Shown here: piece by piece, positions 17,409 to 21,941 of the stretch
Numbering within the stretch: the stretch's first letter is position 1
How the letters are laid out: each line of letters begins with the position of its first letter
Assembly (NCBI GenBank): GCA_032718475.1
Contig: JAUCBJ010005860.1
Span: forward strand, 1 to 52,741
DNA length: 52,741 nt
Reading direction: 5' to 3'
From: Nemertoderma westbladi
Taxonomy: Eukaryota; Animalia; Xenacoelomorpha
Notes under the pieces: model-generated
What the model was told of the DNA's origin: nothing
What the model saw: only the letters and a program-made list of their open reading frames with translations
Databases searched by the model: none
Program-made: the position numbers and the translations under genes

Positions 17409-17741
17409 ATATTGCGGACGTTATCGTAAAAAGGCGTGGTCGGGGCCGTAAAGCCCCAGTGAAACTCTCTCCAGTCACTGAACAATCTGCGGATGATGAG
17501 GACGATCTGGAGATTTCCTTTAAGGCCGGATCCTCTTCTCTCGAGGAAGATAACCCTGTGGTGGGAGGAAAGCCTGTGGTGGGAGGAAAGATTGAATCTC
17601 GTAAAAGTAAAAAACTCCCTGATGGTAGGAAACGGAAAGTTGTCGATGCTGTGCCCGTAGCCATAGATGTTGAATCTACCGAGGCGATGGTCGATGATGT
17701 CGCGGTTCCCCCTAAACGAAGACGTGCTCCACCAGTAGCCG
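17409..17741 (+). CDS. MKI67: Ki-67-like gene, exon
   Basis: Acceptor ttttccttgcag ends at 17408, donor G|GTTGGT at 17742, phase 1/1. Encodes KRRGRGRK and PPKRRR basic motifs. Confidence 0.7.
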
Positions 17742-20593
17742 GTTGGTTATCATTATTAGTGCTCCACCAGTACCCGATTAGTTATCATTATTAGTGCTCC
17801 ACCAGTAGCCGGTTAGTTATCATTATTAGTGCTCCACCAGTAGCTGGTTGGTTATCATTATTAGTGCTCCACCAGTAGCTGGTTGGTTATCATTATTAGT
17901 GCTCCACCAATAGCCGGTTGGTTATCATTATTAGTGCTCCACCAGTACCCGATTAGTTATCATTATTGGTGCTCCACCAGTAGCTGGTTGGTTATCATTA
18001 TTAGTGCTCCACCAGTAGCTGATTGGTTATCATTATTAGTGCTCCACCAGTACCCGATTAGTTATCATTATTAGTGCTCCACCAGTAGCTGGTTGGTTAT
18101 CATTATTAGTGCTCCACCAGTATCCGATTAGTTATCATTATTAGTGCTCCACCAGTAGCTGGTTGGTTATCATTATTAGTGCTCCACCAGTACTCGGTTA
18201 GTTATCATTATTAGTGCTCCACCAGTAGCCGGTTAGTTATCATTATTAGTGCTCCACCAGTAGCTGATTGGTTATCATTATTAGTGCTCCACCAGTAGCT
18301 GGTTGGTTATCATTATTAGTGCTCCACCAGTAGCCGGTTAGTTATCATTATTAGTGCTCCACCAGTAGAGATTGGTTATCATTATTAGTGCTCCACCAGT
18401 AGCTGGTTGGTTATCATTATTAGTGCTCCACCAGTAGCCGGTTAGTTATCATTATTAGTGCTCCACCAGTAGAGATTGGTTATCATTATTAGTGCTCCAC
18501 CAGTAGCTGGTTGGTTATCATTATTAGTGCTCCACCAGTAGCTGATTGGTTATCATTATTAGTGCTCCACCAGTAGCCGGTTAGTTATCATTATTAGTGC
18601 TCCACCAGTAGCTGGTTGGTTATCATTATTAGTGCTCCACCAGTAGCTGGTTGGTTATCATTATTAGTGCTCCACCAGTAGCTGATTGGTTATCATTATT
18701 AGTGCTCCACCAGTAGCCGGTTAGTTATCATTATTAGTGCTCCACCAGTAGCCGGTTAGTTATCATTATTAGTGCTCCACCAGTAGCTGATTGGTTATCA
18801 TTATTAGTACTCCACTAGTAGCTGATTGGTTATCATTATTAGTGCTCCACCAGTAGCTGGTTGGTTATCATTATTAGTGCTCCACCAGTAGCTGATTGGT
18901 TATCATTATTAGTACTCCACTAGTAGCTGATTGGTTATCATTATTAGTGCTCCACCAGTAGCTGGTTGGTTATCATTATTAGTGATCCACCAGTAGCCGG
19001 TTAGTTATCATTATTAGTGCTCCACCAGTAGCTGATTGGTTATCATTATTAGTACTCCACTAGTAGCTGATTGGTTATCATTATTAGTGCTCCACCAGTA
19101 GCTGATTGGTTATCATTATTAGTACTCCACTAGTAGCTGATTGGTTATCATTATTAGTGCTCCACCAGTAGCTGGTTAGTTATCATTATTAGTGCTCCAC
19201 CAGTAGCTGATTGGTTATCATTATTAGTACTCCACTAGTAGCTGATTGGTTATCATTATTAGTGCTCCACCAGTAGCTGGTTGGTTATCATTATTAGTGC
19301 TCCACCAGTAGCCGATTAGTTATCATTATTAGTGCTCCACCAGTAGCTGATTGGTTATCATTATTAGTACTCCACTAGTAGCTGATTGGTTATCATTATT
19401 AGTGCTCCACCAGTAGCTGGTTGGTTATCATTATTAGTGCTCCACCAATAGCCGGTTAGTTATCATTATTAGTGCTCCACCAGTAGCCAGTTAGTTATCA
19501 TTATTAGTGCTCCACCAGTAGCTGATTGGTTATCATTATTAGTACTCCACTAGTAGCTGATTGGTTATCATTATTAGTGCTCCACCAGTAGCTGGTTGGT
19601 TATCATTATTAGTGCTCCACCAGTAGCTGGTTGGTTATCATTATTAGTGCTCCACCAGTAGCCGATTAGTTATCATTATTAGTGCTCCACCAGTAGCCAG
19701 TTAGTTATCATTATTAGTGCTCCACCAGTAGCTGATTGGTTATCATTATTAGTACTCCACTAGTAGCTGATTGGTTATCATTATTAGTGCTCCACCAGTA
19801 GCTGGTTGGTTATCATTATTAGTGCTCCACCAGTAGCCGGTTGGTTATTATTATTAGTGCTCCACCAGTACCCGATTAGTTATCATTATTAGTGCTCCAC
19901 CAGTAGCTGATTGGTTATCATTATTAGTACTCCACTAGTAGCTGATTGGTTATCATTATTAGTGCTCCACCAGTAGCCGGTTAGTTATCATTATTAGTGC
20001 TCCACCAGTAGCCAGTTAGTTATCATTATTAGTGCTCCACCAGTAGCCGGTTAGTTATCATTATTAGTGCTCCACCAGTAGCTGATTGGTTATCATTATT
20101 AGTGCTCCACCAGTAGCTGATTGGTTATCATTATTAGTGCTCCACCAGTAGCTGGTTGGTTATCATTATTAGTGCTCCACCAGTAGCCGATTAGTTATCA
20201 TTATTAGTGCTCCACCAGTAGCTGATTGGTTATCATTATTAGTACTCCACTAGTAGCTGATTGGTTATCATTATTAGTGCTCCACCAGTAGCCGGTTAGT
20301 TATCATTATTAGTGCTCCACCAGTAGCCGGTTAGTTATCATTATTAGTGCTCCACCAGTAGCCGGTTAGTTATCATTATTAGTGCTCCACCAGTAGCTGA
20401 TTGGGTATCATTATTAGTGCTCCACTAGTAGCTGATTGGTTATCATTATTAGTGCTCCACCAGTAGCCGGTTAGTTATCATTATTAGTGCTCCACCAGTA
20501 GCTGATTGGTTATCATTATTAGTGCTCCACCAGTAGCCGGTTGGTTATCATTATTAGTGCTCCACCAATAACCGAATAGTTATCATTATTAGT
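17724..20593. repeat. 35-bp minisatellite, about 82 copies, beginning inside the exon and containing the splice donor
   Basis: Unit GTGCTCCACCAGTAGC(C/T)G(G/A)TT(A/G)GTTATCATTATTA, period 35 (17724, 17759, ...). Confidence 0.97.
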
Positions 20594-20749
20594 AGGAATA
20601 TAGGAAACCTGAATGGAAATCGTCTGAATCCCTTTATATTTACTGTTATTGAATTTCTTCCCAAACCTGTTCCAAACCTCATAATTTACCCGATGCAGAT
20701 CTAGTTTAACCGGGAAGGAGCCGATTATTATGTGAAATTTGTTTTCCAG

Positions 20750-20871
20750 GTAAATCCAAGAAACGGGTGGGGTTTGATACTACGGGGGATTCGTACAGGA
20801 TTATAACACCTGCAGTTATAGCGAACAGACGTGGTGTAGGACGGTCAAAGGGTGGAGTGGAAAACTCTAAG
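20750..20871 (+). CDS. MKI67: Ki-67-like gene, short exon (not in the ORF track)
   Basis: Acceptor tttgttttccag ends at 20749. Phase 1 entry reads GKSKKRVGFDTTGDSYRIITPAVIANRRGVGRSKGGVENSK without a stop. Consensus donor AAG|GTAAGT at 20872. Confidence 0.65.
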
Positions 20872-21941
20872 GTAAGTGAACAGACGTGGTGTAGGACGGT
20901 CAAAGGGTGGAGTGGAAAACTCTAAGGTAAGTGAACAGACGTAGTGTAGGTCGGTCAAAGGGTGGAGTGGAAAACTCTAAGGTAAGTTAACAGACAGTGG
21001 TGTAGGTCGGTCAAAGGGTGGAGTGGAAAACTCTAAGGTAAGTGAACAGACGTGGTGTAGGACGGTCAAAGGGTGGAGTGGAAAACTCTAAGGTAAGTGA
21101 ACAGACGTAGTGTAGGTCGGTCAAAGGGTGGAGTGGAAAACTCTAAGGTAAGTGAACAGACGTGGTGTAGGTCGGTCAAAGGGTGGAGTGGAAAACTCTA
21201 AGGTAAGTGAACAGACGTAGTGTAGGTCGGTCAAAGGGTGGAGTGGAAAACTCTAAGGTAAGTGAACAGACGTGGTGTAGGTCGGTCAAAGGGTGGAGTG
21301 GAAAACTCTAAGGTAAGTGAACAGACGTGGTGTAGGTCGGTCAAAGGGTGGAGTGGAAAACTCTAAGGTAAGTTAACAGACGTGGTGTAGGACGGTCAAA
21401 GGGTGGAGTGGAAAACTCTAAGGTAAGTGAACAGACGTGGTGTAGGTCGGTCAAAGGGTGGAGTGGAAAACTCTAAGGTAAGTGAACAGACGTGGTGTAG
21501 GTCGGTCAAAGGGTGGAGTGGAAAACTCTAAGGTAAGTGAACAGACGTGGTGTAGGTCGGTCAAAGGGTGGAGTGGAAAACTCTAAGGTAAGTGAACAGA
21601 CGTAGTGTAGGTCGGTCAAAGGGTGGAGTGGAAAACTCTAAGGTAAGTGAACAGACGTGGTGTAGGTCGGTCAAAGGGTGGAGTGGAAAACTCTAAGGTA
21701 AGTGAACAGACGTGGTGTAGGTCGGTCAAAGGGTGGAGTGGAAAACTCTAAGGTAAGTGAACAGACGTGGTGTAGGTCGGTCAAAGGGTGGAGTGGAAAA
21801 CTCTAAGGTAAGTGAACAGACGTAGTGTAGGTCGGTCAAAGGGTGGAGTGGAAAACTCTACGGTAAGTGAACAGACGTGGTGTAGGTCGGTCAAAGGGTG
21901 GAGTGGAAAACTCTAAGGTAAGTGAACAGACGTGGTGTAGG
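20823..21941. repeat. 55-bp minisatellite, about 20 copies, each carrying AAG|GTAAGT
   Basis: Unit GAACAGACGTGGTGTAGG(A/T)CGGTCAAAGGGTGGAGTGGAAAACTCTAAGGTAAGT. Confidence 0.97.

Follow-up and report, generated by a model that had tools for sequence, protein, structure and literature searches.

Two unrelated minisatellites span the 5' splice sites of consecutive introns in a gene of Nemertoderma westbladi and are likely inert intron filler

Two consecutive introns of one gene of the xenacoelomorph Nemertoderma westbladi begin with large tandem arrays, each of which starts inside the preceding coding exon and crosses its donor site. The two arrays are unrelated in sequence. Their extra copies are likely inert intron filler produced by ordinary tandem duplication, and the one assembled transcript splices at the first copy in both introns. 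The analysis covered a window of 52,741 bp, which is the whole of contig JAUCBJ010005860.1 (assembly GCA_032718475.1). The arrays and the host gene lie on its + strand.

Anatomy of the two arrays

As assembled, array 1 (17724-20593) comprises 82 copies of a 35-bp unit across the donor at 17742, and array 2 (20823-21941) comprises 20 full copies of a 55-bp unit, followed by an 18-nt partial unit, across the donor at 20872. Both were delimited with Tandem Repeats Finder and unit parsing, which returned the same copy numbers, and the same start inside consecutive coding exons, that a first-pass annotation had read from the letters alone. The 35-bp unit is made up of the last 18 nt of the exon and the first 17 nt of the intron; 80 of its copies measure 35 bp and two measure 34 bp, they fall into 20 variants, and the array closes with a 2-nt GT overhang after unit 82. 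The 55-bp unit (19 copies of 55 bp and one of 56 bp) joins the last 49 nt of the exon to exactly GTAAGT, and its end corresponds to donor position +6. The intron of array 1 is 3008 bp long and would measure about 175 bp if the extra copies were removed, while the figures for the intron of array 2 are 1337 and about 273 bp.

A GT is present at the donor position in 42 of the 82 copies of array 1 (41 of the 81 later copies) and is lost in the other 40, including copy 2. Array 2 is near-uniform, with GTAAGT intact in 20/20 units (19/19 later copies). On a nine-position donor consensus, 16 later 35-bp copies score 7/9, against 6/9 for the donor in use, GTTGGT (17742-17747). Selection against decoys in array 1 was considered and rejected: there are about five common variable positions, one of them falls on the GT, and chance allows that. 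Folding of the array starts as RNA (run without a shuffle control) gave no structure setting donor 1 apart.

Each junction had been described as amplified independently, and the anatomy bears this out. The best local score between the two units was 14, within the range of shuffled sequences (mean 12, 95th percentile 16), and the 14-mers of either first unit had no further occurrence outside the arrays within the window. A candidate motif common to both units, a 7-nt match in opposite orientation, was also within the shuffle range and was rejected.

The arrays in sequencing data

Five of the eight runs were examined as assembled contigs (X1-X5, with X6, X7 and X8 left out). X1 comes from sample S1, possibly the source sample, and X2 and X3 from sample S2 of another study. 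The arrays exist and are not an assembly artefact, because DNA runs of the two samples contain head-to-tail unit junctions. For array 1, contigs in which a unit tail continues upstream of 17724 numbered three in X1, four in X2 and two in X3. For array 2, the head-to-tail junction is present in X2 and in X1 junction contigs at a depth of 700-725 versus 42 in the flank, with a further unit contig from X5; the X1 maximum of 725 is close to what 20 copies would give, with contig depth not being a copy number.

The 3' ends of the arrays are anchored as well. An X1 contig runs from the last 35-bp unit through the unique rest of the intron, acceptor included (20594-20749), into the next exon, and an X2 contig links a unit of array 2 with the unique intron sequence past 21941, which extends with its acceptor to 22208 (21942-22208). 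Relative to the flanks, the depth over the units of both arrays was 2-3 times lower in S2 than in S1, a difference that length polymorphism or library bias may cause. Holes over 20599-20820 in X2 and X5 carry no evidential weight.

Host gene

The gene model has exons at 3-3885, 15431-17107, 17409-17741, 20750-20871 and 22209-22277, with GT..AG introns and a single open frame of 2027 residues within the window, still open at its 5' edge. The first exon is large and contains a 336-bp coding repeat; its in-frame GT..AG join to 15431 is a predicted junction, without RNA support. The second is an open frame with 138-bp coding repeats, and its 3' junction is present in a spliced contig of run X4, as are both junctions of the third exon, whose last 18 nt (17724-17741) are the exonic part of the 35-bp unit. 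The same contig contains the 122-nt coding exon between the arrays, whose last 49 nt are the exonic part of the 55-bp unit, and its loose end past 20871 matches 22209 onward, the last coding exon (22 residues and the stop). From the length of the X4 contig, the 3' UTR would reach at least 22850, a position inside a 33-bp repeat, if it is unspliced, and 20871>22209 would be the last junction of the transcript. The acceptor of the 122-nt exon is directly followed by a donor-like GTAAAT (20748-20755); no use of a zero-length exon was seen there, and the X4 contig includes the 122-nt exon.

The encoded protein is basic (pI 9.84), has 52 S/T-P sites versus 30 expected, and contains 336-, 138- and 18-bp coding repeats. 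A motif scan placed a PP1-type motif at residues 1969-1973, encoded by the 122-nt exon, and the short PP1 pattern occurs at three places. At two places, near residues 294 and 362, the protein has a short motif that we assume to be akin to those of Ki-67. Together with the general features, these likenesses suggest that the product is likely Ki-67-like, in which case an N-terminal FHA domain would fall beyond the window. Large size, basic charge, repeats, many S/T-P sites and a PP1-type motif are listed as general features of non-vertebrate Ki-67 in the consulted part of bioRxiv 10.64898/2026.06.18.733134, and the host protein matches this set, which is not specific to Ki-67. Homology searches with the host gene gave no match to known Ki-67, and a domain search with the host exons gave nothing above the cut-off apart from the 336-bp repeat, which scored weakly for DUF7001.

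Donor choice in the transcript

No run is recorded as RNA, and the RNA origin of X4 is assumed solely from the splicing of its contig. This contig (1345 nt, depth 165) contains the junctions 17107>17409, which skips 17108-17408, 17741>20750 and 20871>22209, and backs the exon models initially drawn around the arrays. Bases unique to copy 1 directly precede the 17741 junction and the next exon, and the 122-nt exon is present once. The main transcript in X4 uses the first donor at both introns, as seen in one contig of one run. The single X4 contig placed at each array does not lie on copy 2, with the reserve that contigs lose rare forms and that minor isoforms are invisible in X4, which was prepared without a decay block.

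Reading past the first donors meets in-frame stops, as had been reported: a TAG at 17792-17794, at the end of copy 2 of array 1 and included by every later donor, and a TAA at 20923-20925, in the second 55-bp unit and 1 nt before donor 2. The related claim, that the complete protein requires the first copy, holds formally; at array 2, however, donor 2 would cost only the last 22 residues, with 17 others in their place, and a single nucleotide would separate the stop from the last junction. In array 1, each of the 41 later GT donors would lead to a product of 1981 residues that lacks the PP1-type motif, with 139 nt or more between its stop and the last junction.

The distance between stop and last junction marks a transcript for decay according to a 50-55-nt rule. 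If this rule applies in the present organism, RNA from the later donors of array 1 could be hidden by decay, and the donor 2 product of array 2 should be stable and not a decay target, because its stop almost touches the last junction. Nearby copies may be used at a low level, by analogy with human 6-16, CBS and ABCA7.

Other features of the window

Tandem repeats are abundant in the window. The largest array (44853-50592, 5.7 kb) has a 27-bp unit in about 213 copies; it was tried as a third junction array and rejected, with no exon found and its right end adjoining a dispersed repeat that also lies near 24300, 35000-35270 and 36000. At 31309-32325, an ACG microsatellite comes after 3.2 copies of a 315-bp unit.

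Nested antisense in the host gene's 11.5-kb intron (- strand, 4321-7446) is an open frame without introns, about 1040 codons long, which had no match in Pfam and includes an 18-bp coding repeat as well as tracts rich in glycine and proline. A long inverted pair (8646-9640 and 11290-12250), identified by eye in the same large intron, looks like a transposon-type element. Elsewhere in the window we noted an intronless divergent actin-like gene (25820-26947), about 62% identical to its best relatives, actins of all groups; an apparently intronless DHHC palmitoyltransferase gene (29492-30634); a predicted three-exon homeobox gene (39149-40449) with a 24-bp coding repeat in its last exon; and a reverse-transcriptase fragment of a LINE-type element (43189-44130).

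Origin of the arrays

A route absent from the first-pass annotation, and simpler than those it considered, is that exon duplications whose length is not a multiple of three survive only when they straddle a splice site. Each array would have been born from a short tandem duplication across an exon/intron junction. Duplications of 35 or 55 bp within an exon would be eliminated for breaking the reading frame, while one straddling the donor would spare the upstream exon and the first donor and leave all the extra copies intronic, provided that the most upstream donor is chosen, as seen here in one contig and known from F7. Slippage or unequal exchange could then have enlarged the arrays, followed by free drift, including the loss of GT in 40 of the 82 copies. 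Surviving arrays would start in an exon because the reading-frame filter removes the non-multiple-of-three duplications that do not straddle a splice site.

Several observations are coherent with inert filler. The first donor is used at both introns in X4 although 16 later 35-bp copies fit the consensus better, as in the F7 experiments (PMC1557585), and almost half of the copies of array 1 have no donor GT. The window is repeat-prone, with 27% of it in tandem arrays and three coding arrays in the host gene, and no link to an exon was found for its largest array, which adjoins a dispersed repeat. On the other side, the RNA basis is one contig from one run, and unproductive splicing at array 1 could be hidden. 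Furthermore, the window has an excess of donor-spanning arrays that survivorship alone does not predict: they are two of the three arrays with at least 20 copies, and the 55-bp unit stops exactly at donor +6.

We evaluated this excess against a window null in which arrays were collapsed to one unit, exon interiors were barred, and 12 non-coding arrays with a period of at least 10 were placed relative to six modelled donors, three of which (one in the host gene and two in the homeobox gene) have no RNA support. Two of the 12 arrays span a donor versus 0.12 expected, with P about 0.005; the value is 0.012 for either kind of splice site and 0.001 without the 315-bp array. All these P values are post hoc, as this feature was the reason for selecting the window out of a very large scan. 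Given this choice, the 27% of the window taken up by arrays and a largest array unconnected with any exon found, the excess neither proves nor excludes a donor bias.

The excess over the null speaks for the strongest alternative, which we consider unlikely: a mutational process in this lineage would favour the seeding or expansion of minisatellites at 5' splice sites, for example through transcription-bubble slippage at the point of U1 binding, and two arrays in one gene would not be chance. Coherently with it, two arrays are donor-side and none acceptor-side among the 12, the 55-bp unit ends at +6, and the lancelet authors see the pattern as possibly general, with the mechanism unclear (PMC3087553, consulted in part). 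However, the count is two in a window chosen post hoc, acceptor-side arrays occur too (lancelet BflGb6; PMC3087553), and the units have no significant common sequence. The +6 boundary also loses force, since keeping the first donor requires the unit to reach about +5/+6, and +6 is then the allowed minimum.

A broader form of this idea is, in our judgement, doubtful: the 5' splice sites of the lineage would be hot spots for the birth or runaway growth of minisatellites, exon ends would give rise time and again to kilobase arrays, with short introns growing as a result, and first-donor choice would hide the process from selection. Counting such arrays across the genome would test splicing-linked mutagenesis directly, as well as the way in which a spliceosome selects the first among as many as 42 donors. 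In the literature searched we found no published test of genome-wide enrichment of such arrays at donors, including the consulted portions of PMC10078293 and PMC2812944.

The first-pass annotation had also proposed that the arrays act as splice-site decoys feeding unproductive splicing, a reading that the evidence does not support. Donors kept by selection as decoys would adjust the output of the gene by way of isoforms that carry a stop and are sensitive to decay, or the length of an array would adjust skipping of the 122-nt exon; we regard this as very unlikely. Any of the 41 later copies with a GT in array 1 would indeed give the truncated 1981-residue product with a stop far enough upstream of the last junction, and the ABCA7 VNTR shows both decay-subject unit retention and length-dependent exon skipping (PMC5954066). 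Against this, the X4 contig splices at the first donors, about half of array 1 (40/82 copies, copy 2 included) lacks the GT, and unit retention in ABCA7 did not vary with array length according to the consulted part of the same source. As for array 2, its donor 2 product should escape decay under the 50-55-nt rule, yet no such contig was seen in X4.

Finally, that an assembly error created or inflated the arrays is barely conceivable: there is no long read across an array in the examined data and S2 has the lower relative depth over the units, but head-to-tail junctions come from two samples and two studies, contigs tie both 3' ends to unique intron sequence, the X1 junction depth of array 2 is near that of 20 copies, and array 1 has 20 distinct unit variants.

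Comparison with known systems

The gene is a clean, large natural case of first-donor choice, in which 41 and 19 spare donors, some of them stronger, are bypassed in neighbouring introns, and it shows how exon ends can make the short introns next to them grow tenfold. The significance would grow if donor enrichment held genome-wide.

The arrays belong to a known class, the junction-spanning minisatellites described in human F7 intron 7 and in the lancelet 'mirages'. Both arrays of the present gene have head-to-tail units of 10-100 bp, a first unit across a real boundary and the donor reiterated downstream; dominance of the most upstream donor, also typical of the class, was seen in one contig of one run. 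The comparisons below refer to the consulted parts of the cited articles; among these, PMC2812944 surveys human exon/intron-boundary repeats.

In the 37-bp VNTR of F7 intron 7, the first unit lies across the exon/intron boundary and the donor is reiterated in the intron, and splicing takes only the most upstream donor, even if later copies are stronger (PMC1557585). The arrays described here share with it the boundary-spanning first unit, the repeated donors and the use of the first donor past better-matching ones. They differ in size and number: F7 has 4 exonic nt and 5-9 copies, and the present gene has two unrelated arrays in consecutive introns, one with 18 exonic nt and 82 copies, the other with 49 exonic nt and 20 copies. 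The same geometry is found in the minisatellites of human 6-16, CBS intron 13, LMNB2 and PDGF intron 4, which provide 10-25 extra donors; the first donor alone is used in LMNB2 and PDGF, and the two nearest copies are used as well in 6-16 and CBS (in PMC1557585). Those genes are described with one array each, unlike the two of the present gene.

The 25-bp VNTR of ABCA7 intron 18 also has a donor in each unit and kilobase alleles, and use of a later copy causes a frameshift and a decay target (PMC5954066). It resembles our arrays in the donor carried by the units and in the kilobase length; its unit, however, begins at the GT without an exonic part, and its length effect on exon skipping is shown.

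The lancelet mirages (Adh3, the globins BflGb6 and BflGb9, PGBD5 and troponin C) include donor- and acceptor-side arrays with length instability, with units of 10-72 bp in Adh3 and 60- and 108-bp repeats in PGBD5, and the consulted parts of these articles report no mis-splicing (PMC3087553, PMC3902484). As in the present case, they are invertebrate tandem duplications at exon/intron boundaries with differing unit lengths in one gene. The lancelet globin arrays have 3-6 units and acceptor-side cases too, whereas both arrays of N. westbladi are donor-side and kilobase-sized. The only unusual point is the presence of two large, unrelated arrays in consecutive introns, for which the lancelet offers a partial precedent.
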